This document shows positions 35,381-58,802 of a stretch of DNA of 64,000 nucleotides, in pieces (within the stretch, counting starts at the first letter, position 1; each line of letters begins with the position of its first letter). This stretch comes from a virus. Below the pieces are notes generated by a model. The model had not been told where the DNA came from. It did not search any database and saw only the letters and a program-made list of their open reading frames with translations. The translations under genes and the position numbers were made by a program. Where the stretch lies: the IMG/VR virus record IMGVR_UViG_3300050821_017216, positions 1 through 64,000 of that record. One strand, 5' to 3'.

Positions 35381-38300
35381 TCAGCCACTCGCGCCTCCCT
35401 TCCCTCGTACGAACCGCATCGCGTCCCGGATCCGCTCGTCGGGCCAGCCCCACTCGGTCGCGACGGCCCGCGGGTCCCCGGCACCGCTCAGCGTGGCCTG
35501 GTGGAGCGCCTGGCCGTCCGCGCGCGCCTTGGACTGGCGGTGCTTCGCCAGCGCCCGGGCCCGCCCAGCGCGTGCCTCTGGCCAGCCCAGGGTCTTCGTG
35601 GTGGCCCGCCACTCGGACTCGTCTAGGTCGAAAAGCACGGACGAGTCCGCCTCCGTCTGCTCGTCCGCCGTGGGCTGGCGAGGTGTGGCGGGTGTGGCGG
35701 AGTGTTTTTCGAGGTGTGGCGGAGGCTCCGCCACACCTCCGTCTCTATAGTTACCGTCAGTTAGACCACGTGTGGCGGGTGTGGCGGGTGTGGCGGAGCT
35801 ATTTCCGCCACTCCCCCCCGGTGTGGCGCGTGTGGCGCCATCACTAGGGGGTATGGGGGATTTTTTTGGACCGCCCATCACACACCGATCGGTAGGTAAG
35901 TCACCACCGTCTGAGTCTGGTTGCGGGGCGTACTGCCCCGACGGGTAGTGCTTCAGGTCCTTCGGGTTGCTCCTGTCTACGGTGATGGTGTGTGACACGC
36001 TCTCACAATAGGAGATCGCGGCGTCAGCCCGGTCCTTTCCACACTCGCCCATCGCGGCGGCCATCGACGCCCGGAGCTGACGCGAACCGATCCCTGGCGA
36101 CCGTGAGACGACCCTCAGGCACGCGTCCCGGTCCCGGGCGCGCTGCTGCTCCTTCGAGTCCGCGGCGGCGGCTCGCCGCTGGGCGACCTCCTCCTCGGCC
36201 TGCCGCCTCTCCTCCTCCTTCTGCTGCCTCTTCTGCTCCTTCGACCGGTCGGCCTTGCTGAGGGCCTCGACGACGGCATCCCCACCGTCCCTGGCGGGCT
36301 CGTACCGGAAGCCCGTGAAGTGCATCGGGGTCCACCGCGCCCCCGTCGCGCGCCCCTTGGCGGTGACGAAGACGACGCTCTCGCCCTGGCCGTCCACGTA
36401 GGTGTCCGGGACGCGCGACAGGACACTGACGCTGTCGGCGCCGTACTCGATCTCGCCGCTCTCCTTGCCGAGGCCGACGAGGACGTCCGGGATCGTGACG
36501 CGCCGGTTGACCAGGCGGTCCTTGTCGTAGTCCCAGCTCAGGTCGGCGCTCATCACCATCGGCCAGAGCCCGTACTTGTCGCGCGCGACGGACGCGACGA
36601 CGAGGATCGCGATGTTGTGGTGCGTCGCCACCTCGCGCAGCGCGTAGGCGGCGCGCCCGATGCGCTCGCGCAGGTCGAGCGTCTTGTACTTACCGTCCTC
36701 GTCCTCCTCCGGGCCGACGATCTGGAGGTAGTCGAGGACGATCAGGATCGGCCTCGACCCGGGTCCGCCGGAGTTCAGCGTCTCGGACGGGGGCGGCTCC
36801 GGGTACTTCTGGCGGAGCGCGGCGGCGAGCGCGTGCACCTTGCTCGCGGGCCAGCCCATCGGGTTGCGGTTGACCGGGTGCAGCGGGAGTTTCCCAGCCT
36901 TCGCTTTCTCTGCGAGTTCGATCGCGACCGTGGCCGCGCGCTCGAGTGCGTCCTGGCTGGTCTGACCGGTGTAGAGGTCGCTCCACCGGAGCTTCGCCTC
37001 CTCGCCGACCACGCGCAGGTCGAACTGGAGATCGTCCATCTCGAGGCCCACGTAGGCCGTCGGGACGCCCTGCTCGGCGGAGTGCTTGCAGATCTGCAGG
37101 ACCGCGGCGGTCTTGCCGACCCCGGTGCCCGAGCAGAGGATGTGCAGCCCCGGCCACAACCCCCCGCCGAAGTGCTCCTTGAGATCGCCCCACGGCAGCG
37201 GCACCGGCTTCTCGATCCCGACCGATCGCCGTACGGCGCGCGCGACGGATGTCTTGAGGTGCTCGCCGATGGTGGGCGCCCACTTGTCGAGGTCGTCTTG
37301 CTCGGGCCCGGCCGGCGCGGCGGGGAGGGGCGGCTCGGCGGCCTGCGAGTGGGTCGGGGCGCCGACGACGAGTTCCAACCCGAACCGGTCGCTGATCGCG
37401 ACGACCGCCTCGCGCGCGGCGACGTGGTGGACCTCCATGACGAGGTCGATGTTCGTTCTGAACCCGGCGCGCCCCTTGTCCTTGCAGCGGTTGTGGTGGC
37501 ACTTCAAGCCGTGGTTGAGGATCGAGACGCCGCTCGTCTCGCCGCAGCCCGGGCACGTGACCTCGCCGCTCGCGTTGTATAGGCCCAGCCACTCGGCGAC
37601 GGCCTGCGGGTCGACGGAGTTCGCGAGCGAGTACGGCGAGTCCGGGTTGTCGCGCATCGGCGACACGACGCTCGGCGCCGCTGCCGGCTGCAGGCGCGAC
37701 CCGAGGACGCCGAACGCCTTCTCCATGGCGGCCCGGCCGTCGGGGTTCAACCCGTCCCAGACGGTGCGCGCGAGCTCGACGATCCGCGCCAGCGAGAGGC
37801 GCGTGACCGCCTCGGGCGTCACGATGGCGGTGCGCCGGTGCGGGCGGTCCTCGACGCCCGCCGCGCCCTTCTTCTTCAGGGTCCCGCACGCGGGCAGGAT
37901 GCGCTTGGCATCGAAGAGCTTCTCGTCGACCGACACCTCTGGCGTGTTGAAGAGGTGAGCCAAGCCCGTGAGCAGCCCCGCTATCGCGTTCTTCGACTCA
38001 TCAGTCACCGGCACCGCGTCGAGCGCGACGTGGATCTGCCGGCCGTTGCCCGAGTGCAGGTACGCGAGCGAGCTCTCTCCGTCGAGGTGGTGCGCGAGGA
38101 AGTTCCACGCGCTCTGCGCGACGCGCACCGACCGCTGCACCTCCTCGTCGGTCGCCGAGATGCCCGACGGGCGCTTGACGTCGAAGTCGATCGCCAGGAT
38201 GAGTCGCGCCTCGACGTCCGAGTCGGTCGTGCCGGCGCCCTTCTGGATGTCAAACCAATGACCCGGCGCGGCGTTGCGCGACTCGACGCCGGCGCGCAGG

Positions 38301-38674
38301 CGCGCGGGCAGGAGGTAGGTGCCGTGCGCGATCCACGTGTCTGCGGCCGCGCAGAGCAGGACGGCCTCCTCGGGGCTCCGAGCGTGCGAGGCGCGCGTGC
38401 GCTCGAACGAGTCGGTCGGGTAGCGCCTGAATCCCAGCACCTGGAACTCGAACACCCTCTCACCACCACCCACGAACGCGAGCTGGCGGCGCAGGTTCGC
38501 CTCGAGCCCCTCCGCCTGCGCGCGGAGAAGGCGATCCTCGAGCGGGGCGCTCTCGGTCCCGGACGGCCCGTCGCCAGACCCACCCCCACCGGACCCGGAT
38601 CCAGTCTTCTGCTCCGCTACGAGTTTCCAGAAATCTCCCGAGGAGATCCGCTCGTAGCCGTCGTCCGACATCAC
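35381..38674 (-). CDS. Primase-polymerase (AEP)-Zn finger-DnaB-like SF4 helicase fusion
   Basis: IDFDVK, SGNGRQIH, DEKLFDAKRI (AEP); CPGCG...CHHNRC; GTGVGKT, GLEM, VLDYLQ (SF4). Confidence 0.85.
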   Translation of the reverse strand: MMSDDGYERISSGDFWKLVAEQKTGSGSGGGGSGDGPSGTESAPLEDRLLRAQAEGLEANLRRQLAFVGGGERVFEFQVLGFRRYPTDSFERTRASHARSPEEAVLLCAAADTWIAHGTYLLPARLRAGVESRNAAPGHWFDIQKGAGTTDSDVEARLILAIDFDVKRPSGISATDEEVQRSVRVAQSAWNFLAHHLDGESSLAYLHSGNGRQIHVALDAVPVTDESKNAIAGLLTGLAHLFNTPEVSVDEKLFDAKRILPACGTLKKKGAAGVEDRPHRRTAIVTPEAVTRLSLARIVELARTVWDGLNPDGRAAMEKAFGVLGSRLQPAAAPSVVSPMRDNPDSPYSLANSVDPQAVAEWLGLYNASGEVTCPGCGETSGVSILNHGLKCHHNRCKDKGRAGFRTNIDLVMEVHHVAAREAVVAISDRFGLELVVGAPTHSQAAEPPLPAAPAGPEQDDLDKWAPTIGEHLKTSVARAVRRSVGIEKPVPLPWGDLKEHFGGGLWPGLHILCSGTGVGKTAAVLQICKHSAEQGVPTAYVGLEMDDLQFDLRVVGEEAKLRWSDLYTGQTSQDALERAATVAIELAEKAKAGKLPLHPVNRNPMGWPASKVHALAAALRQKYPEPPPSETLNSGGPGSRPILIVLDYLQIVGPEEDEDGKYKTLDLRERIGRAAYALREVATHHNIAILVVASVARDKYGLWPMVMSADLSWDYDKDRLVNRRVTIPDVLVGLGKESGEIEYGADSVSVLSRVPDTYVDGQGESVVFVTAKGRATGARWTPMHFTGFRYEPARDGGDAVVEALSKADRSKEQKRQQKEEERRQAEEEVAQRRAAAADSKEQQRARDRDACLRVVSRSPGIGSRQLRASMAAAMGECGKDRADAAISYCESVSHTITVDRSNPKDLKHYPSGQYAPQPDSDGGDLPTDRCVMGGPKKSPIPPSDGATRATPGGSGGNSSATPATPATRGLTDGNYRDGGVAEPPPHLEKHSATPATPRQPTADEQTEADSSVLFDLDESEWRATTKTLGWPEARAGRARALAKHRQSKARADGQALHQATLSGAGDPRAVATEWGWPDERIRDAMRFVRGKGGASG
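35683..35838. repeat. GTGTGGCG iteron-like cluster with a perfect 14-bp inverted repeat
   Basis: Direct copies at 35683, 35692, 35714, 35770, 35779, 35788, 35821, 35830; hairpin 35711-35739. Confidence 0.8.
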
Positions 38675-41506: not shown

Positions 41507-43002
41507 GTGAAGCACCTGACCCACCACTTCTGGCTCACCGACGACGGTGCCACGCTCTGCGAGCCGTGCGGGGCGACGTACCGCGCCTCCGTATCCGAGG
41601 TGATCGCGTTTTCCATGTTCATAGAGCGCCACCGCGTGTGCGGGCAGCGCACTCAGAAGGTCGCGATCCCGTACAGGGTAATCCCGAACAAGCCCGAGCG
41701 TACTGCCGCTCCCGCCGTCGACGTGCAGTCGATCGTCGATCATGCTGACCTGGCGGAGCACTACGCGCGCGCGTGTCGTGGCGACAAGACGCGGGCCCTG
41801 CTCATGGCGCTCGACGCCGGGTTCGACTTCACGCGCGTCGTGGGGGCGTTCGGCAACGAGGGGGTCGCGATCTCGTTCCAGTGCCTGCTCAACGGGTGGA
41901 TCGATCGGGGGCGGATCACCGACGCGGGTAGGGTCAAACTTCAGATGGGAGCGGACGCGTGATCATCGCCAAGACAGTTGAACCACCGCCAGGCAAGCGC
42001 GTCGGGCAGGGCGGTCAAGTCGAGTGCGACCACCCGAAGCGGCGCGGCCCGCTCACTCCCAAGTGGGACCTGTACCAGCGAGAGGGTGACGTCTGCGACG
42101 CGTGTGGGTGGAGGGAGGCCCTGCCGATGCGGGTGTTCAGTGAGGACGGCAGCTCGGAAGAGGTCAACGCCGTCGACTTCTTTCGCTCGGTGATCGCCAA
42201 GGAGCGAGGTGACGGGTCGTGACCAACGTCGACAAGGCGCTCTTGTTGTCCGAATGGGCTGGCGTCCACGGTGTGGACGCCGACGCGTGCTGCCCGTGCT
42301 GCGAGGCGTACGTGTGCACCGGCAAGCGCCACGAGCCGAACTGCCCGATGGATCTCGCGTTGTCCGAGCGCGGGTACTGCGTGCAGGAGGAGCGGGAACG
42401 TGCGCGCGACCACATCTTTCGCGGCGAGGCCGCTACCGCGCCGACGCTGCCGCCGAGCGGGGAGGACCGATGACGCGCGAGGTGTCGAGCGAGGCGGTCG
42501 TTGGTGATGTCGGCACCGTCGATCGGTTCATGGAGCGCTTAGCGGGGCAAGCTACGGAGCTCGACGGGATGCTCGGGAGCCTGTCGGGGATCCTCGCGGA
42601 GATCGGCGGTATCAAGGACGCGATCGTGTCGGTGGATCACCGGCAGGCGCGCGTGTCGGGGTACCTCAGGCAGACCGCAGATCGGATGCGGTACATCGCG
42701 CGTAAGGAGCGCGGCGTGCGCAAGCGCGACCTGGTGCTCGGGATCCGGCGACTCACTGAGTTGGCCGATCGTTTGGAGCGCGAGTGAGGCGCCGCCGAAC
42801 TTCGCTCGAGGAGCGGCTGGCGTGGGACCAGTACGCCGCCGCGTGGGCGGTCGCGCTGGGGTTCACCCACCAGCACCGCGAGGACGGCGAGGAGGACCCG
42901 CTGACGGCCGCCGAGTACGCCGACGACATGCTCGCCGAGCGCAGGAAGCGGTTCGGGCGCGCGCGCAAGGCGGCGCGGCGCACCGCGGCGAGGCTGCACT
43001 GA
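41507..43002 (+). CDS. Run of five small coupled hypothetical genes (41507-41962, 41959-42222, 42219-42473, 42470-42787, 42784-43002)
   Basis: Consecutive GTGA/ATGA overlaps. Confidence 0.6.
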
Positions 43003-43022
43003 AAGGGTTAGAGGTCAATACC

Positions 43023-43532
43023 GTGGCGAAGTTCAGACTGAAACCGACGCCGGTCGATGCCGTCCAGCTCCGCTGGGACACCTGGGGCGACGTGTGCGAA
43101 CTCATCGGCGCACCGGGAGGCCTCAAGGAGGGTCACCCCGAGGGCTGCTATGTCGATCAGGACGGCGAGGAGACCGACGACACGAACGGTCGCATCGGGC
43201 TCAAGATCCCGCGCTCCATCCACGGCGTGGACGGTCATGAGATCGCCGTGCAGGATGACTGGATCGTCCGGATGAGCGGCGAACTGGTGGTCCATAGCCA
43301 CGCGAGCTTCACGTCGCTGTTCGAGTCGCCCGCCGACTACGCGGTCGCCTACGAGCCGGACTGGGTCAAGTACCCGAAGCTCGCCGCCGCGCTCGCAAAC
43401 CGCCCGCCCGAGTACGGGCAGGAGCTCCGCGCGCTGCTCGTCGACGCGCGCGCCGACGCCGTGCAGTACGTCCGCGACGTGCGGGCCGACGAGCTGGCCC
43501 GAGCGAGAGAGAGCGGGAGGGGCGAGCGATGA
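43023..43532 (+). CDS. Conserved phage protein
   Basis: KFRLKPTPVDAVQ...DDWIVR resembles the KYRKKPV...GDWII family. Confidence 0.6.
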   Translation: MAKFRLKPTPVDAVQLRWDTWGDVCELIGAPGGLKEGHPEGCYVDQDGEETDDTNGRIGLKIPRSIHGVDGHEIAVQDDWIVRMSGELVVHSHASFTSLFESPADYAVAYEPDWVKYPKLAAALANRPPEYGQELRALLVDARADAVQYVRDVRADELARARESGRGER

Positions 43533-45264
43533 CCGCGCGGGTCGCCGGGCTCCCGGTGGGGGCTCTCGTGAGGCGCGACGCGATCCACCCCGCGATGCGC
43601 GAGGCGCTCGGCGCCTTCGAGGTGCTCCGCCGGTTCGGCTTCGAGTCCGACGACATCTTCTTCCACCAGAACGCGGAGGAGGTCCCCGGGCGCGAGCCGA
43701 AGGGGATGATGTTCGTGGTGCTCAAGACGCAGGGCAAGGACTTCTCGATCCGCGTGGGCGTCGTCGACCTGCCCTACGAGGTGTGGATCGAGGAGTGGAC
43801 AGCCGTCGCGACCGCCGCCGCCGAGAAGCGGATCGTCGGGGTCGATCGGATCGTAGATGAGAGCTTGGCGCGCAGCGAGATGGTGGGGCTGCTTCTGGCG
43901 ATCCATGGAAAGGGGATCCGTGTCCCCGTCGCCCAGCTGGGTCTCTCTTGAGCCAGCTCTCGTTCTTCGGCGCACCGCCACCCAAGCCACCGGCGGATCT
44001 ACCGCCTGCGGCAGTCGCGATCCTGGCCGCCGCCAGGTCGCTGGCTTTCACGACGCGGGTCACTCGCGGCTGCTGGGGCGTGGCTGTCGGCGTCAAGCGC
44101 CGGTGGACGCTGCGTTGGGACCGCTGCTGCGCGCTCGGGGCCTACCTCGTCGCCGTCGAGGCGGTCGCCGGACCGAGCGAGCAGTCGCCGCGCGCGACCG
44201 TCACCCGACTGCTCGGGTTGACCCACGATCAGGTCACCGCGTTCACGCGCGGGTTCGACGGGTTGCCGGGCGACGGTTCGGAGTGGTACCGGTACGGCGC
44301 GCGGGTCGCGGAGGAGGTCATTACCCCATGAGCGATGATGAGAGGTCCGCTATCGAGACGGTCGTGCGAGCGCCAGACCCGTATGTGACCGTGAGCCTGC
44401 CGGGCGTGCTGCTGGTCAGGGAGACCGAGATCGGGGCGAAGGTGCTGCGGTCGGCGCTCAACGGGCTGTTCGAGCGGCTCGGTGACCGAAAGGTGTCGAT
44501 CGCTTTGACGACGCTCGATCCGCCAACGTACGCCGAGGGTGCCAAGATCGACGACGGTGTCACGCTGCTGCGATCGGCGTTCGGTGCTGACGGCAACGAA
44601 CCGATGGAGGAGGCCGCGCGGCGCGTCGTGCGCGCCTACGTCAACCGGGACAGCCGAATACCTACCGCGCGAGACGCCGTCATCGAGGCGGCCATGATCG
44701 TCTGCCGCCCGGGACCCAGCTGGAACGTCGAGGAGGCGTGCGCGGTCCTGCGTCGCACGGGTGTTCCGTGACGGGGGTCGAGATCATCGCCGTAGCGTGC
44801 GGCGCGAGCGTCGTCGGTGTCGCGGTCATCGTGAAGTCGACGCTCGACTTCGCCCGGTGGACCCTCACCGAGGACCGCCTGAGCGACCCGGTCGAGCGTA
44901 GACGCGCGGAACTCAAGCGCAGGTGCGTGGAACTCGAGCGCCGACGCAAGGAGCTCGTGACCAGGAGCGCGCACGAGGTGGCTGGGGCAGATACCTGGAA
45001 CAAACTCAACGAGTACATCAACCAAGTCGACCGGCAGATCGACGAGTTGGACAAGGCGGCCCAGGACACACCATGACTCCCGCTCGCGCCATGCACCAAG
45101 ATCTATGGTCGGCCCTGCGCAGGGTGCGGGACGGTGAACTCCCAGGGAGTCCTGGGTTGCGGGACCTGCTCATCGAGCGCGGGCTCATCGAGTGGGTCCC
45201 CGGTGAGTCTGGACTCCGCCTAACGGCCAGTGGTGTTCGCGTGATACAGAAAGAGGGCCGGTGA
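43529..45264 (+). CDS. Run of five coupled hypothetical genes (43529-43951, 43948-44331, 44328-44771, 44768-45076, 45073-45264)
   Basis: Consecutive 4-bp start/stop overlaps. Confidence 0.55.
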
Positions 45265-45327
45265 CCGCGAGTGGACCGAAGTATCCTCTACGCCGTCCGC
45301 GACCGTACGTCGACCGGAGGAACCCAC

Positions 45328-45510
45328 ATGCTCAAGACCGCAATCGCCACGATTCTCGCCATCGTCGCTGTCGCGAACTGCCAACCGCCGCGCGCGACTT
45401 ACATCGAGTGCGGAAGCGGCCTGCGCTGTCCGATCAACACCGTGTGCGGTGGCGGTCCGTACGCGATCTGCGGGCCGGGCGCGTGCTGTCCGGTGAGTGG
45501 AAGTCCGTGA
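45328..45510 (+). CDS. Small secreted Cys-rich peptide or lipoprotein
   Basis: GGAGG RBS; MLKTAIATILAIVAVANC; 7 Cys in 60 aa. Confidence 0.6.
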   Translation: MLKTAIATILAIVAVANCQPPRATYIECGSGLRCPINTVCGGGPYAICGPGACCPVSGSP

Positions 45511-45644
45511 CGGCTGGCGACGATCACTCCATGGCGAGACCGGTCCCTCGATCCCTCAAGGCGAGGTCGTCGAACGAGCCTCGCGGATGCTCACTCGCGA
45601 GCTGCGAGTCGCGGCGAACGGTCGTGTAAGTCCTGGTTCATCGA

Positions 45645-45995
45645 GTCGAGGTTGAAGAACGACCTCGCTGGACTCGTATCGTTTACCGTCCGCTTGCCAG
45701 GTCGAGGTCGTCGATCGACCTCGTCGTACCGACAGCCATCGCTCTTCTTCCAGAAGGCGAACCGCTACTAGTCGAGGCCGCCGATCGGTCTCGCTGTCGT
45801 ATCGACTGCCCCAGAATTGCAGCTCCATCTCAGGTCGAGATCGACGATCGACCTCGCTGTCATTCCGACTCGTGCCGCAGCGGCAATCTACCTCTCTGGC
45901 GTGGAGTGTCGAGGTCGTCGATCAACCTCGCTGGCGTTACAACGGCGCAGGTGCTGCACGTCAAGGTCGTCGGTCGACCTCGCTGTCCCCGCGCC
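45645..45995 (-). CRISPR. Degenerate trailer block of type-A repeats (about 6)
   Basis: Degenerate GTCGAGGTCGTCGATCGACCTCGCTGTCGTTCCGAC copies at 45645, 45701, 45771, 45834, 45908, 45960. Confidence 0.8.
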
Positions 45996-46015
45996 TACCT
46001 GCCGGCCCCGCTTGT

Positions 46016-46811
46016 GTCGAAGTCGTCGATCGACTCCGCTGTCGTCGCGACACACCGCCGACGTACGCGATACGTCGGAGTCCTCGATCGGCTCCGCTGT
46101 CGTCGCGACGGCACGGCGGGCGCTGTTGCGCGCCCTGGTGGGAGTCGGAGTCTTCGATCGACTCCGCTGCCGTCGCGACCGCGCGGTGGTCGTCGAGCGC
46201 AGCTTACGGTGGGACGTCGCGACATGGTTGCGGTGTCTACGCAACTGACTCCGGCGGAGACGTCGGAGTCTTCGATCGACTCCGCTGCCGTCGCGACCCT
46301 CTGGACGGTCTGCATACCCGTAAGGGGACCCGTCACGACCCAATCGCGGCGCCGCCTAGCGCGCCACTGGCTGCGGTCGGAGTCTTCGATCGACTCCGCT
46401 ACCGTCGCGACGCGCCACGTGGTGCCGGGCCACTGGCACGACATCCCGTCGGAGTCTTCGATCGACCCCGCTGTCGTCATAACCTCTAGCTTCTTCGAGT
46501 GCGCGTTCGTCAGCCGCGTGTCGGAGTCTTCGATCGACCCCGCTGCCGTCGCGACGGGCCGGCAAAATCCACGGCGTCGGAGTCTTCGATCGACTCCGCT
46601 GCCGTCGCGACCGATGCCCAATCGGCCTCGCTGGGGAAGCCGTAGTTCGCGTCGGAGTCTTCGATCGACCCCGCTGCCGTCGCGACTTCCGAACGCTAGG
46701 TTGATGCCAACGCCGACTACAGCGAGTCGGAGTCTTCGATCGACTCCGCTGTCGATGTCGACTGCGCTGAGCTGCATCGGAGTCTTCGATCGACTCCGCT
46801 ACCGTCGTGAC
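46016..46811 (-). CRISPR. Type-B repeat block: 11 repeats plus two 8-bp remnants
   Basis: GTCGGAGTCTTCGATCGACTCCGCTGCCGTCGCGAC at 46016, 46074, 46144, 46262, 46376, 46448, 46520, 46576, 46651, 46726, 46776; remnants at 46216 and 46332. Confidence 0.95.
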
Positions 46812-46836
46812 AAGGCGCATCGCCATGGAACCCCGA

Positions 46837-47898
46837 GTCGAGGTCGTCGATCGACCTCGCAGTCGTTCCGACTTACGCGGCGATCCCGCGAAGGTTCCAA
46901 TCGTAGTCGTCGAGGTCGTCGATCGACCTCGCAGTCGTTCCGACCGCGGCCGCGCGCGCAGTATGAGCGGGGCTCGCCGTGTCGAGGTCGTCGATCGACC
47001 TCGCTGTCGTTCCGACTCGAGGTCACAGTCGAGGAGTTCGAGGGAAGAACTCGTCGAGGTCGTCGATCGACCTCGCTGTCGTTCCGACCCGCGTCTGGCA
47101 CCGCCAGCTCGGCGTTGCACTCCACCGGTCGAGGTCGTCGATCGACCTCGCTGTCGTTCCGACATGCGCATCGTCCGGTTGCCCTTGAGCAACGTGTACG
47201 TGTCGAGGTTGTCGATCGACCTCGCTGTCGTTCCGACAGTACGCCTGCGGCGGCGGAGGAGGCGGGGCGAACTGGTCGAGGTCGTCGATCGACCTCGCTG
47301 TCGTTCCGACCTGCGTCGGCAGCGCCAGCACGTCGACGTCGTCGTGGTCGAGGTCGTCGATCGACCTCGCTGTCGTTCCGACGTCGCGCCGAATGCGCTT
47401 CGCAACGGAGCCCTTGTATCGAGGTCGTCGATCGACCTCGCTGTCGTTCCGACCCTGGAAGAGTTTTCGCGCAAGTTTCGCAGGAAGGGTGTCGAGGTCG
47501 TCGATCGACCTCGCTGTCGTTCCGACGGTGCTCTTGAGCGGGCCCAGTTTCTGCTCGACCTGCTGTCGAGGTCGTCGATCGACCTCGCTGTCGTTCCGAC
47601 CTTGCGAAGTCGCCAACGCTTTTGCGCTCGCACACGGCGTCGAGGTCGTCGATCGACCTCGCTGTCGTTCCGACAGCGCGTGGACGCGAAGATGAGCGAG
47701 CGCGAGCGCCAGTCGAGGTCGTCGATCGACCTCGCTGTCGTTCCGACGATGTGAGCGAGTGAGGGGAGACGGGAACTGACGGTCCGGGGTCGAGGTCGTC
47801 GATCGACCTCGCTGTCGTTCCGACGTCGCCGCCGTGACAACGGGGGCCTCCGTCCCGCTCTTGTCGAGGTCGTCGATCGACCTCGCTGTCGTTCCGAC
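46837..47898 (-). CRISPR. Type-A repeat block: 15 near-identical 36-bp repeats, 14 spacers of 35-41 bp
   Basis: GTCGAGGTCGTCGATCGACCTCGCTGTCGTTCCGAC at 46837, 46909, 46981, 47053, 47128, 47202, 47275, 47347, 47418, 47491, 47565, 47639, 47712, 47789, 47863; orientation inferred from the cas gene and degeneracy polarity. Confidence 0.98.
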
Positions 47899-47939
47899 AG
47901 GTAACGTTATGTTGTCAATGATCTTGTAGGCTTACCGAC
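47899..47939 (-). promoter_or_regulatory. Short AT-richer CRISPR leader
   Basis: 41 bp between the cas stop codon and the first, undegenerate repeat. Confidence 0.6.
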
Positions 47940-50012
47940 CTATTTTCGAGCGCTCTCGATCCTGGCCTTCTTCGCCGCGCCCATCCGTTTCGCGCGCGCC
48001 CACTTCTCGCTCTTTTTCTTGTTTGCTTCCGCATCTTTCTCTGGATCGCGAGCGCCTGCCAGGATCTCGGCGTCGCCGGGCCGCTCGCACCACCGCTGGA
48101 GCAGTAGCGGGGCCGCACCCTCCCGGTCTTGGTCCCACTCGTGACCACACGTGCAGCGCAGGCGCACCCGAAGGGCTGGCTCCCGGTCGGCCACGAGCCC
48201 ACACGCCGGGCACGTGCTGGTCGTGCGCGCGGCGTCTACGGCCACGATCTGGGTGCCGCGACGCGGAGCAGTCGACAGCAGGCAGTCGCGCAGTTCGCTC
48301 ACGGCGGCGAGCTGGCGGTTGCTGCGCGCGACCTCGTTCTCGGCGTCGTCCGCCCCGGTCGCTTTCCGGGTGGCGATTACCCGCAGGTCGAACTGCTCGA
48401 TCACGATCGTGCTGTACGCGCGCGTGAGCTCTGCGGCGAAGCACCGGTACTTGTCGCGCCGGCGACGCAGCCCGCGCGTGCGACACGCTTCCTCGGTGGC
48501 CCATCGCGCCCAGTCGCCCGTCGCCCACGCCCGGACGGCCTGGAGTGCGGCGTCCTCGGCGGCGTCTCGTTCCGGCCGCTCACTCTCCCAGCGACGGAGC
48601 AGGCGGACCATCTTGGCCGGTCGGCGCCACGCGTGCATCGCGCGCGCGGCGTCCCGCATCCACTCCGGCGCGACCGGAGAGACGCCGATCCACTGCTTGA
48701 CCTGCACCTTGCAGATGTCGAACGCGCGGTCGCGCTCGCTGCGCACGTCCGCGTGCATGCGGAGCGCGTGGACGTCGGCGACGGTCAGCCGGAGCTCGCC
48801 GCTTTTCCCGTTCGAGTCGTGCCAAGCTGCGACGCGGATCGCCCCGTCCATCAACCGCCAGCCCACGTCGACGGCGACGGTCGGGCGGTCCGGGACCGGA
48901 ACGGTCGCGGTGTCGGGCGTGTTGACCGTCAGGCAGAGGCTCCACTCGCTATGCGGCCCGCGCATGCGCCGGTGGACGGCAGCCCAGGTGATGAACGCAC
49001 CGGCCGGCAGCGGCCGGTGGTAGTCGAGCCGGAATGTCGCCCAGATCGGCCGGCGATGCTCGTCGGTGTCCACGCACAACCGGAGCTCGCCGTGCCGCGC
49101 CGCACGGTCACGCACCCAGCGCGCCGGCGTGCCGTCGGGTCGCGTCGCCGGTGCAGGCTGGTCCGGCTCGCCTTTACGACCGGGCAGGGTCCCCGGTGGC
49201 CGGCGGCCGCGACCGCTCCCCACGATGCTGTCTTCTCGACGCGGGGAGCGAGCGGTGAGCGTCGCGCTCGCGAGCCACTCTTCGGGCCACGGGGGGGCAC
49301 CGATCCGCAGCCTGGAGTCCTTCTGCGCGAGCGCCCCCTCGACCGTCAGCGGTCGGGTCGACTGGATCTGCACGCCCACGGTCCCCGAGCCGTCCCACGG
49401 GGGCGGCAAGTCCGGGTCGTGCGGCGTGACGCCGTCCCTCTCGTAGAGCGGCGCCTCGCAGCTCGCGCGGTGCGCGCGGTCTACCAGAAGGTACGTCCCC
49501 CACCACACGCCCGAGTGGTGGCGGGCGTTCTTGACGATCTCGTTGGCCATCGCGTCGATGGTGTCGATCGCGTCGCGCAGCGCGCGCGCCTCCGCCGAGG
49601 CGTGCGGGCACGGGTTCTGCTCGCTCTTGAGCTTGCGACACTCCTTGCACTGCGACGCGTAGCGCGCCCGCACCGCGTAGAGTTGCTCGCGCGCCTGCTT
49701 TCCCGCGGCGCGCGCGGCGGCGATCTGCAGGCGCGCGGACGCCGTCTCGCTGCGCGACCGGGTGACCTTGCGCCCGACCCGGATCTCGGCGGCGAGCCAC
49801 TCGCACGCCGCCGCGATCCCGGCGACCTTGGCCTCGGCCGCCTCCATCTCCGCGCTGCAGGTCGACCGCGCCAGCCGCTCGGCCCACCGTCGACCGCGCT
49901 CGATGAGCGTTAGGTTTTTGCGGTACGCGTGCGCGCGCCACATCTGATCGTGGACGACGTCCGCGCCCTCGCGGGGCGCGGTGATTCCGTTGCGAAACAC
50001 AAGTGTCGTCAT
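47940..50012 (-). CDS. cas12m: Type V CRISPR effector, Cas12m (V-U1)-like
   Basis: QMWRAHAYRKNL, WWGTY, WDGSGTVGVQIQ, HRPLP, PTVAVDVGWR, IVIEQ, TTSTCPACG, CTCGHEWDQD collinear with recalled Cas12m motifs; abuts the array. Confidence 0.85.
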   Translation of the reverse strand: MTTLVFRNGITAPREGADVVHDQMWRAHAYRKNLTLIERGRRWAERLARSTCSAEMEAAEAKVAGIAAACEWLAAEIRVGRKVTRSRSETASARLQIAAARAAGKQAREQLYAVRARYASQCKECRKLKSEQNPCPHASAEARALRDAIDTIDAMANEIVKNARHHSGVWWGTYLLVDRAHRASCEAPLYERDGVTPHDPDLPPPWDGSGTVGVQIQSTRPLTVEGALAQKDSRLRIGAPPWPEEWLASATLTARSPRREDSIVGSGRGRRPPGTLPGRKGEPDQPAPATRPDGTPARWVRDRAARHGELRLCVDTDEHRRPIWATFRLDYHRPLPAGAFITWAAVHRRMRGPHSEWSLCLTVNTPDTATVPVPDRPTVAVDVGWRLMDGAIRVAAWHDSNGKSGELRLTVADVHALRMHADVRSERDRAFDICKVQVKQWIGVSPVAPEWMRDAARAMHAWRRPAKMVRLLRRWESERPERDAAEDAALQAVRAWATGDWARWATEEACRTRGLRRRRDKYRCFAAELTRAYSTIVIEQFDLRVIATRKATGADDAENEVARSNRQLAAVSELRDCLLSTAPRRGTQIVAVDAARTTSTCPACGLVADREPALRVRLRCTCGHEWDQDREGAAPLLLQRWCERPGDAEILAGARDPEKDAEANKKKSEKWARAKRMGAAKKARIESARK

Positions 50013-56333: not shown

Positions 56334-58802
56334 ATGCGCACCTGGAGCACCTACCAACTCGCTGTCTTCAAGAACGTCGCTGAAGGCACCGGTCACACCG
56401 TCGTCAACGCGGTCGCCGGCAGTGGGAAGAGCACAACCCTTGAAGAGGCCGTCAACCACATTCCGAAGGGTCTACGGACCCTGTCGGTGGCTTTCAACAA
56501 GGACATCGCCACGGCTATGGCCAAGCGCCTCGCCGGCAAGCCGGTCGAGGTCTCGACGCTGCACTCCTACGGTCTCAAGTGCATCACGGCTTCGCTCGGG
56601 CGGCTCACGATCGACGAGTACCGCGTGCACGGTTTCGTCGAGGACCTGTACAGCGCCGAGATCGCTCGCCTAGAGAAGGCGATCACCGAATCGAAGAGCG
56701 AGGCAGAGGCGTTCGAGTTTCAGGAACAGTTGGAGGCCATCGACGACCGCTGCCGCATGCTCATCAAGACCGTGTCGCTATCAAAGAACACGCTCGCGCT
56801 GACGCCGGTCGCGATCGACGAGGTCATGTACCGGTTCGGCATCGAGCTACCGACCACGGAAGAGGACGAGGAGGGCGCGTTCGGGGACGAGGCGGGCGAT
56901 GACGCCGCTGAGGCTGACCGCCAGAAGTTCGTCCAGGAGGTACTGGGACTGCTCCGCCGCTGCTACAGCACCGAGGACGGCAAGATTGACTTCGACGACA
57001 TGGTCTGGTTGCCGGTCGTCAGGAAGCTCCGCCAGCGCAAGTTCGACCGCGTCTTCGTGGATGAATGCCTGCCGGGGCCTACTCCGGTGCTTCTCGCGGA
57101 CGGGTCGTCGCGGACGATTCAGGATCTGGTCGAGAGTCGATACTCGGGCGACGTGCTCGCCTACGACACGGCGACCGGCAAACAGCGTCCCTGCCGCGTA
57201 ACGGGTTGGCAGACGATCCTGAACCAGAAACCGCTCGTGAAGATCAAGGCTCGCTGGAGCCAGCGGAAGGGAACGAACCGGCCGACGAACTTCATCATCT
57301 GCACGGAGGACCACAAGGTGTGGGCGAACGGAGCGTGGGTGCCGGCCGGAGATGTGAAGCCTGGGATGGTTCTCCAGGTAGAGACTTCTGCGGAGAAGTC
57401 CCAGGTCGGCAAGATCACGAAACGTGGACGCGCCACGCTAGCCGAAGAGATCCGGAGGAAGAACAAGGCCGGGATGATGGGCGGTGTGGCACCTACCGTG
57501 TTCAATGGTGTGCGAGGCGGCAACGGCAAGGGCCCAACGGTGCCAGAGCAGGCGCTCATGGACGCATTGGGGGAGGGTTGGGTCTGGCAGTACGCGATCC
57601 CGACGAAGAAATCGCGTGGGTATGGCTATCCGACCGCGTACAAGGTCGACATCGCGAAGCCGGGATGCAAGATCGCGATCGAAGTAGATGGGCACTCGCA
57701 CGGCCTGCGAAGGGCTCATGACGAGAAGAAGGACAGACTCCTGGAGTCGCTCGGGTGGACGGTCATACGGGTACCGAACCGGCGAGCCGTTCAGAACGCG
57801 AAGGAGGAGGCAGAACGCATCCTCGCAATGACCAACTGCCCGATCGATGCTGTCGTGGAGTCAGTGGAGCCGGTGACCATCCCGAGCTTCCACGTCTACG
57901 ATCTGACGGTCGAGGACTTGCACTGCTTCTACGCGAACGGGATTCTCGTTCACAACTGCCAAGATCTAAACGCAGCGCAGATTGAACTGACTCTGCGATC
58001 GGTCAAGTCTGACGGCCGTATCCTTGCGTGCGGTGACCCCCGGCAGGCGATCTACCAGTTCCGTGGCGCTGACGAGCGCGCGTTCGAGAACGTCAAGGAA
58101 GGTCTCGGCGCGACCGAGCTACCGCTGTCGATCTGCTACCGCTGCTCGAAGGCGGTTATCCGTAAGGCCCAGGAGCTCGTCCCAAGCATACAGGCGTCAC
58201 CGGACGCCCCCGATGGTACCGTTCTCCCAGCATCGCGCGAGCAGATGGAGAGGGAGGCGCAGCCGGGCGACTTCATCCTGAGCCGCACGAACGCCCCGCT
58301 GATCGGGCTCTGCATGTTCTTCCTAAAGAACGGCCGACGAGCCAACATCCAGGGGCGCGACGTGGGCAAGACCCTCGCCTCGTTCGTCAAGAAGAGCAAG
58401 GCAGCGGACATCCCCGCGTTCCGTGCCCACGTCGAGGAGTGGGCGAAGAAGGAGATCGCGAGGCTCGCCGCCAAGAAGCGCGACACGCAGGCGGTCGAGG
58501 ATCGTGCGGCGTGCCTCATCGCGCTCAGCGACGGCGCCGTCCGCGTCGCGGACGTCCTCGCCAGGATCGAGGAGCTGTTCTCCGACAAGAGTGACGGCGC
58601 CTGCATCATGCTCTCGACCACCCACAAGGCGAAGGGTCTGGAGCGCGATCGGGTCTGGCTGCTCATCGACACCTACCGGCCGAGTATCTCGATGGAAGAG
58701 GCCAACTGCCTATACGTCGCTCAGACACGCGCGAAGCACACGCTCGTCCTGGTCGGCGGCTTCGCGAAGAAGTCCAAGAGCGACGGCGCGGAGGGCGCGT
58801 GA
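56334..58802 (+). CDS. UvrD/Rep-like SF1 helicase with intein
   Basis: NAVAGSGKST, spliced VFVDE/CQD, GDPRQAIYQFRGA, ICYRC, STTHKAKGLE, LYVAQTRAK. Confidence 0.92.
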   Translation: MRTWSTYQLAVFKNVAEGTGHTVVNAVAGSGKSTTLEEAVNHIPKGLRTLSVAFNKDIATAMAKRLAGKPVEVSTLHSYGLKCITASLGRLTIDEYRVHGFVEDLYSAEIARLEKAITESKSEAEAFEFQEQLEAIDDRCRMLIKTVSLSKNTLALTPVAIDEVMYRFGIELPTTEEDEEGAFGDEAGDDAAEADRQKFVQEVLGLLRRCYSTEDGKIDFDDMVWLPVVRKLRQRKFDRVFVDECLPGPTPVLLADGSSRTIQDLVESRYSGDVLAYDTATGKQRPCRVTGWQTILNQKPLVKIKARWSQRKGTNRPTNFIICTEDHKVWANGAWVPAGDVKPGMVLQVETSAEKSQVGKITKRGRATLAEEIRRKNKAGMMGGVAPTVFNGVRGGNGKGPTVPEQALMDALGEGWVWQYAIPTKKSRGYGYPTAYKVDIAKPGCKIAIEVDGHSHGLRRAHDEKKDRLLESLGWTVIRVPNRRAVQNAKEEAERILAMTNCPIDAVVESVEPVTIPSFHVYDLTVEDLHCFYANGILVHNCQDLNAAQIELTLRSVKSDGRILACGDPRQAIYQFRGADERAFENVKEGLGATELPLSICYRCSKAVIRKAQELVPSIQASPDAPDGTVLPASREQMEREAQPGDFILSRTNAPLIGLCMFFLKNGRRANIQGRDVGKTLASFVKKSKAADIPAFRAHVEEWAKKEIARLAAKKRDTQAVEDRAACLIALSDGAVRVADVLARIEELFSDKSDGACIMLSTTHKAKGLERDRVWLLIDTYRPSISMEEANCLYVAQTRAKHTLVLVGGFAKKSKSDGAEGA
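57066..57956 (+). mobile_element. 297-aa intein with DUF559/Vsr-like endonuclease
   Basis: N-terminus CLPGPTPVLLADG; block B CTEDHKV; C-terminus FYANGILVHN/C; internal IAIEVDGHSH...LGWTVIRV. Confidence 0.9.

Follow-up and report, generated by a model that had tools for sequence, protein, structure and literature searches.

Cas12m effectors belong to CRISPR type V-M (formerly V-U1; Wu et al. 2022, as cited in PMC11013384) and have been described by Bigelyte et al. 2024 (PMC11013384) and Omura et al. 2023 (PMC10442227). The published Cas12m repeats have two predicted stems (PMC11013384). The locus examined here lies in a 64-kb stretch of viral DNA (hereafter, the window), and it resembles these systems in having a compact effector with RuvC and zinc ribbon domains, an adjoining array, two-stem repeats, and no adaptation genes. 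It differs from them in the length of the effector, which is about 90 residues longer (690 versus ~600 amino acids), in being carried by a virus, and in having an array of 32 repeats in two dialects.

A Cas12m carried by a phage is also known, namely MvCas12m of the myxophage lineage MV-1 (bioRxiv 10.64898/2026.09.14.751636). Like the effector in the window, MvCas12m is encoded beside an array without cas1, cas2, or cas4, retains a D-E-D triad, and has a link to Myxococcota, and in both cases no protospacers were found. However, the MvCas12m effector is 610 amino acids long, its array has one consensus repeat and eight spacers, and a mosaic array is not reported. Arrays without adaptation genes occur as well in huge phages that encode CasPhi (Pausch et al. 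2020) and, as mini-arrays, in archaeal viruses (Medvedeva et al. 2019), both as cited in bioRxiv 10.64898/2026.09.14.751636. As in the window, these viruses carry either an effector with an array or an array only, presumably directed against competing elements, but the effector in the window is of a different family. To our knowledge, the descriptions of CasPhi and of archaeal mini-arrays include no mosaic arrays of two co-adapted repeat types.

In bacteria, recombination between arrays brings blocks of spacers into existing arrays (Kupczok, Landan and Dagan 2015, PMC4524480), and such exchange can give immunity to elements that were never met (PMC4524480). The bacterial arrays have identical repeats, and the exchange was inferred statistically from the spacer order among strains. 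In the window, by contrast, two dialects mark the blocks directly, the array resides in a virus without adaptation genes, and the tail of the effector and the leader have been exchanged as well. While array recombination (PMC4524480), Cas12m (PMC11013384, PMC10442227), and phage-borne Cas12m (10.64898/2026.09.14.751636) were already known, what is new here is a viral array without adaptation genes that contains two co-adapted dialects, the identification of the sister dialect, and the linked exchange of effector tail and leader.

A Cas12m-like effector adjoins the only array of a viral genome

The window covers positions 1 to 64,000 of an IMG/VR virus record of 119,899 bp that is rated complete by CheckV. 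Its CRISPR array (positions 45561-47898, minus strand) is the sole array of the record: neither a second array nor any other copy of either of its two repeat types, A and B, was found in the 119,899 bp. Profiles of Cas1, Cas2, and Cas4 had no matches across the 119.9-kb record (E ≤ 0.1), with the positive controls detected. The element thus lacks cas1 and cas2, as had been predicted from the window alone, and cas4 is missing too. Rfam returned nothing at 45000-48200, and promoter and terminator scans of the locus gave nothing informative. Because related proteins and a related array are present in a metagenome-assembled genome (MAG) of Polyangiaceae, and given the preprint on a myxophage Cas12m, the host of the virus is likely a myxobacterium.

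The effector gene (47940-50012, minus strand) encodes a 690-amino-acid protein that we assign to the Cas12m-like (type V-M/V-U1) effectors from its Pfam, PDB, and PADLOC matches. Residues 573-633 form a Cas12f1-like TNB zinc-ribbon domain (Pfam PF07282, 2.8e-9). The best match among solved structures is a Cas12m (PDB 23vw_A, 6.4e-40, residues 296-637), GoCas12m is also matched (PDB 8pm4, 3.9e-16), and the top PADLOC model is Cas12u1 (5.3e-74), a name that refers to what is now subtype V-M. The original prediction of a type V effector is narrowed by the PDB and PADLOC matches to a V-M/V-U1-like one. Across 24 aligned homologues, little or no variation is seen at the RuvC D-E-D residues (D382, E539, and D627/D629) and the four cysteines of the zinc ribbon. 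The locus therefore combines Cas12m homology, RuvC and TNB domains, an adjoining array with structured repeats, and the absence of an adaptation module, as expected of type V-M. A CasPhi/Cas12j identity, which was first suspected from the shape of the repeats and the phage setting, was dropped after the sequence searches led to Cas12m/V-U1. The closest homologues of the effector are the proteins P0002 (77% identity) and P0003, and the exact protein is on record from three sources, on two contigs. From what has been shown for Cas12m (PMC11013384), homology predicts that the effector is guided by its crRNA to PAM-flanked DNA, which it would bind and silence. It may also cleave DNA; the published Cas12m variants that have a D-E-D triad do not (PMC11013384).

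The array consists of two repeat families in A-B-A order

The array begins 41 nt past the stop codon of the effector gene, after a leader (47899-47939, minus strand) that was compared across eight loci and aligned to that of a sister phage. The leader contains the motif TTGACA(A) at 47913-47918, which in relatives is conserved ~15 nt upstream of the first repeat. A position-by-position parse of the array gave, from the leader outward, 15 pristine A repeats, 11 B repeats, and then 6 to 7 decayed A-like repeats. These counts agree with the earlier reading of 15 A, 11 B, and about six decayed A repeats, to which the parse adds one remnant near 45561. The blocks are contiguous, far above the chance expectation, and no spacer in the array is duplicated. 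The array is a genuine A-B-A recombinant, in which A and B are discrete repeat families.

The A block (46837-47898, minus strand) has 15 repeats of 36 nt and 14 unique spacers of 35 to 41 nt. Eleven of its repeats are exact and the other four have one mismatch each; the two oldest, at 46837 and 46909, have one private substitution in common. The B block (46074-46811, minus strand) has 10 B-type repeats, a count that the mosaic repeat at 46016 brings to 11. These repeats are polymorphic at two stem positions, with all four combinations of the two sites represented, and several spacers within the block are short (13-14 and 20 nt). The decayed A-type trailer (45561-45959, minus strand) has five repeats at 45645-45943, with 3 to 12 mismatches or indels and with spacers of 16 to 38 nt, in addition to the remnant near 45561. 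When the repeat at 45960 is counted, six decayed A-like repeats lie in 45645-45995, at 3 to 12 mismatches to A. The mean number of mismatches per repeat rises from ~0.3 in the A block to ~2 in the B block and ~7 in the distal A block, and deletions occur only in the latter two blocks.

Two intervals of the B block that look like long spacers each hide a truncated B repeat from which the hairpin part has been deleted. One, of 82 nt (46180-46261), consists of two spacers fused by a repeat of which the first 9 nt are left (46215-46223, minus strand). The other, of 78 nt (46298-46375), contains a repeat of which the first 10 nt are left (46330-46339, minus strand).

The two repeat dialects are predicted to fold alike

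Eight of the 36 repeat positions distinguish A from B, and each of the differences is neutral to the predicted fold. On the minus strand, both repeats fold into the same two-stem shape. Four of the eight differences make up two compensated pairs in stem II (positions 16/17 and 31/32), the difference at position 10 replaces a U-A pair in stem I by U.G, and those at positions 5, 6, and 27 fall in loops or at a closing pair. Among 17 repeats of the family, six of the seven pairs of stem II show compensatory double changes. Because of the common fold and the covariation in stem II, A and B look like functional crRNA handles rather than products of decay. Given that both dialects encode the same two-stem handle, and that the body of the effector is 95% identical to that of an effector located beside a pure-B array (see below), this effector probably uses both. 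The 5′ half of B is shared by outgroups of the family, which points to A as the derived dialect.

Repeats and spacers at the block borders are irregular

At the leader-side border (junction zone 46762-46836, minus strand), a variant B repeat (46776-46811) lies between a spacer of 25 nt (46812-46836) and one of 13-14 nt (46762/3-46775). The next repeat, at 46726-46762 (37 nt), combines a stem II of the B type with a changed 5′ part. The switch from B to A at this border affects all eight diagnostic positions at once and has no intermediates; the junction is made of an altered B repeat and short spacers, and a clean hybrid repeat is absent. On the trailer side, the border spacers are of 22 nt (46052-46073), 20 nt (45996-46015), and 16 nt (45944-45959). 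Short border spacers of 25, 13, and 22 nt had been noted before, and those of 20 and 16 nt extend the list.

The trailer-side junction zone (45960-46109, minus strand) has three graded mosaic repeats, which at the diagnostic positions read, on the plus strand, AAAAAABB (45960), ABABBABB (46016), and BBxBBABB (46074). This series is monotonic, with two to three changes per step. On the minus strand, the 5′ end of the 45960 repeat resembles B and its 3′ end resembles A. Stem II of the 46016 repeat is predicted to be maintained through a G.U pair. All three departures of the 46016 repeat from B are at diagnostic positions and take the A state, which by our own arithmetic would occur by chance with a probability of ~4e-4. 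The repeat is therefore a true mosaic and not a product of random decay. That it is a mosaic had been part of the original prediction, which pictured an A-like left part and a B-like right part, consistent with a crossover within the repeat. This two-part picture does not hold, since the states are interleaved (A-B-A-B-B-A-B-B), a pattern for which patchy repair or short-tract conversion is a better fit than a single crossover.

Leader-end acquisition, in which the first repeat is copied, cannot alone yield a return from B to A over eight positions, as had been argued earlier, and recombination is therefore needed. Fusion of two separate arrays by a deletion was also considered, and was set aside because no remnant of a leader lies where the blocks meet; the 25-nt spacer there does not resemble the leader of the sister phage.

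A sister phage carries a pure-B array, and the effector tail and leader have a discordant ancestry

Searching for a locus with type-B repeats only, a check suggested along with the original prediction, gave a positive result. A sister phage contig of 60,787 bp, recovered identically from two IMG/VR samples, encodes an effector that is 93% identical to that of the window and is directly followed by a pure-B array of 22 repeats. These repeats are identical to the window repeats at 46520 and 46651 and are one base away from the commonest B form of the window; three B repeats of the window have the sister's base at the minus-strand repeat position 17. Within the sister array, two spacers each occur twice.

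The genes that flank the array are syntenic with those of the sister, at 83-91% identity. Synonymous divergence of the effector from that of the sister is low over codons 1-640 (dS of 0.09-0.24) and rises to a dS of 0.82, with a dN of 0.185, over codons 640-690. Nucleotide identity likewise falls from ~94% to ~70% at the effector tail and the leader. The effector body of the window is 95% identical to that of the sister, and the 600 nt upstream of the tail are 94.7% identical to the sister and ~68% identical to relatives whose effectors have ~60% identity. In contrast, the window's tail and leader are 76% identical to the sister, which is no closer than they are to those same relatives. Because the ancestry of the basic C-terminal tail (the last ~50 codons, 47940-48092, minus strand) is discordant with the rest of the effector gene, we place a recombination breakpoint near 48090.

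The last 50 residues of the sister effector are identical to those of P0003 at 46 of 50 positions, even though the bodies of the two proteins are only ~70% identical. The tail in the window matches P0003 at 35 and P0002 at 34 of 50 positions and is not unusually close to any relative compared; among 80 related loci, no donor for the window's tail and leader was found. From about 48090 down to 41591, the B repeats are the only thing that the window and the sister record have in common. This interval includes a ~4-kb flank of the array trailer (41592-45560, no strand assigned) that has no counterpart in the sister, where synteny resumes at 41591, and no match in any of the 80 related loci. The discordant tail and leader show that tail, leader, and array are exchanged as a cassette between lineages, and the match of the sister's tail to P0003, together with the lack of a close relative of the window's tail, documents such an exchange on the B side; on this reading, it was the B cassette that moved. 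Such exchange among the phages of this family independently supports the earlier proposal of recombination with another locus.

Sandwich arrays recur among relatives

An array was seen in ~48 of ~80 related loci scanned, mostly immediately downstream of the effector gene. Two of them, L028 and L023, also have sandwich arrays. In L028, three X repeats are followed by seven heterogeneous variants and then by three X repeats identical to the first three, and all spacers are different. In L023, four X repeats precede 11 Y repeats and four decayed X-like repeats. The array of L096, the contig of the Polyangiaceae MAG, ends in decayed repeats of a type that is used by another member of the family.

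Searches for donors and targets

The arrays of the window and of the sister have no spacers in common, and the absence of the B-block spacers from the sister array means that the sister locus does not identify the donor. A degenerate pattern matching A and B exactly detected no pure-A locus in IMG/VR, where the contigs of the sister were the only matches, and gave no match among metagenome contigs. A looser pattern, applied to one genome from each of 185,579 species, found only the Polyangiaceae MAG contig, which has a third repeat type. Searches for protospacers gave nothing above chance in the virus's own genome, the related loci, the sister record, and a more distant viral record, nor in 50,697 GenBank phages, and two 24-nt spacer seeds had no exact match in IMG/VR. 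Of the idea that immunity had been imported wholesale, recombination stands, while the transfer of a whole working immunity gains no support: the sister's spacers are not shared, no targets were found, and the B block has truncated repeats and shortened spacers.

Origin of the A-B-A order

We favor an explanation in which a B block was recombined into a native A array, after which the B and distal A repeats eroded; we would put its chances at about even. In this explanation, the array would be transcribed on the minus strand from the leader located just after the effector gene. About 11 repeat-spacer units with the B dialect of a closely related phage lineage would have been patched into the A-dialect array, most likely when relatives infected the same cell and their arrays recombined. 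The crossovers, in the 13-nt core shared by the repeats or close to it, would have produced the mosaic repeats and the short border spacers, and erosion of the B units and the distal A units would have followed. Within this sequence of events, we infer the direction of the transfer, the mechanism of recombination, and the usability of B-type crRNAs. Several observations favor it. It requires two events, versus three in the layered history considered next; the cassette shared with a distant lineage is the B-side one of the sister; sandwich arrays recur in relatives, with intact identical flanks in L028; and the polarity of the 45960 repeat, with B upstream and A downstream, is that expected of a crossover. 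On the other side, the steady rise in decay from the leader would be more directly predicted by layering, and the lack of shared B spacers and of a pure-A locus in our scans would also seem to weigh against a nested patch, as might the leader-side junction without a clean hybrid and the interleaving of the 46016 repeat. In addition, if A is the derived dialect, polarity arguments from the graded series become ambiguous. All of the evidence bearing on this explanation comes from metagenome-assembled contigs.

Alternatively, the array could have been built in layers: on top of an old A array, now the decayed trailer, a B array would have been received or have evolved, and one recombination with an A-type relative would then have brought in a new tail, leader, and array top of 15 A units, making the A block the import and B the older resident memory. 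We consider this history unlikely, but several features of the locus fit it well. The decay gradient (~0.3, 2, and 7 mismatches per repeat) fits the implied order of ages; the break at codon ~640 runs through the leader into the A block, so that one event could explain both the break and the A/B junction; the body of the effector is nearly that of the effector beside the pure-B array; and other arrays of the family, such as that of L096, still end in decayed repeats whose type is different and older. However, the history needs three events, namely the placement of B over A, the sister's loss of the trailer and the 4 kb, and the re-import of A. It is the sister, not the window, whose tail can be shown to be shared with a distant lineage, the return to the same dialect would have to recur independently in L023 and L028, and no A-type donor is known from the scans of IMG/VR, metagenomes, species genomes, and related loci. 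The same evidence bears on the original prediction of a foreign B block nested in a native A array. The A-B-A order was upheld, but an imported B and a native A do not follow from it, since the effector body is 95% identical to that of the pure-B neighbor and the decay gradient fits A being the newest.

We regard as very unlikely that no foreign DNA was involved and that the array developed locally, through drift of the repeat next to the leader together with conversion or slippage within the array. The monotonic trailer-side series, in which stem II passes through a G.U intermediate, would be expected of such a process, short-tract conversion between neighboring tandem repeats is plausible, and the B block has every combination of its two polymorphic sites. 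Nevertheless, drift would account only for this graded series. The leader-side switch changes eight positions without intermediates, an A repeat drifting into B would need to arrive at exactly the 5′ half seen in distant relatives such as L016 and L023, and B exists elsewhere as an independent pure array. Moreover, unequal exchange within an array deletes or duplicates units and does not reorder them, and duplicated spacers are absent.

Least probable of all is that the assembler joined the arrays of co-occurring A-type and B-type strains. Short reads make CRISPR arrays difficult to assemble, and a B-type sister strain is present in public data. However, the A and B blocks have no exact string of more than 13 nt in common, and this length is reached only via the mosaic repeat. 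Each 31-mer that spans either junction is unique in the genome, as are, with four exceptions, the 21-mers at the A/B junction, so that a join in a de Bruijn graph is implausible and a chimera unlikely from the k-mer evidence. The junction repeats, moreover, are private variants found nowhere else, the B-block spacers differ from those of the sister strain, and the effector protein has been recovered more than once.

Recombination as a possible source of immune memory

From where the spacers of viral and plasmid arrays without Cas1 and Cas2 come is an open question. Together, the sister's pure-B array, the discordance of the effector tail and leader, and the sandwich arrays of two relatives suggest that these viruses regularly gain or reshuffle immune memory by recombination. 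We tentatively propose that the arrays of this viral Cas12m family, which lacks Cas1 and Cas2, are largely built and renewed by recombination between competing relatives. The arrays might then amount to a communal, recombining immune memory in which both repeat-spacer blocks and whole tail-leader-array cassettes are exchanged, a speculation that we put forward with less than even confidence. If it is true, the effector tolerates several structurally equivalent dialects, and the dialects are natural barcodes of each transfer. Because the differences between A and B preserve the fold, they label the blocks by origin, and array exchange can thus be read from a single sequence. With its two dialects, the locus is also a natural experiment on the tolerance of a Cas12m-type effector for repeat variation, a point of interest for the use of such an effector as a compact DNA-binding tool. 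Outside the sandwich arrays, block structure was also seen in the array of L079, where a leader block of nine repeats differs at four positions from the remaining repeats.

Truncated repeats in the window array

Two repeats of the B block in the window array have lost their hairpin-forming part by a precise deletion of 26 to 27 nt, and only their first 9 to 10 nt are retained (window 46215-46223 and 46330-46339). The same type of deletion has occurred twice. Each deletion thereby joins the two neighboring spacers into a single unit, which is not processable.

The leaders of all close relatives (loci L009, L016, L018, L019, L023, and L022) have in common with the window a conserved TTGACAAT-like motif, which precedes the first repeat by about 15 nt and in the window lies at 47913-47918 on the minus strand. 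It has no matching -10 element at standard spacing.

Arrays and effector genes of relatives

In the pure-B array of the sister phage (L009 8552-9531), two spacers are present twice each, and the copies lie about 363 nt, or five units, apart. Different spacers stand between the copies. The duplicates indicate either repeated acquisition or recombination at the level of whole units. The sister record itself (G001; 60,787 bp) is classed in IMG/VR as having inverted terminal repeats.

Locus L017, whose effector is 61% identical, has no regular array 3′ of the effector gene (L017 8126-9600). In this interval a 19-nt piece of the repeat, its 3′ hairpin half alone, recurs about 28 times, irregularly spaced at 3 to 176 nt, mostly at 12 to 62 nt. 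These copies represent either an extreme state of decay or a different element. In locus L023, the effector match of 685 residues covers 2,952 nt (L023 5312-8263), and a span of this length suggests that the gene carries an insertion or is disrupted.

Other genes of the window

A 4-kb block of small ORFs on the plus strand (window 41592-45560) separates the trailer of the array from the conserved backbone and has no counterpart in the sister phage or in any of the fetched loci. For two of its ORFs no Pfam family was matched, the one faint hint being to DinB_2. In a 1,097-aa protein encoded on the minus strand (window 35381-38674), only residues 505 to 588 are recognized, as a DnaB-like helicase C-terminal domain, and the remainder has no assignment. 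An 822-aa UvrD/Rep-type helicase (window 56334-58802, plus strand) is interrupted by an intein that has splicing motifs at its N- and C-terminal ends and contains a DUF559/endonuclease-like insert.
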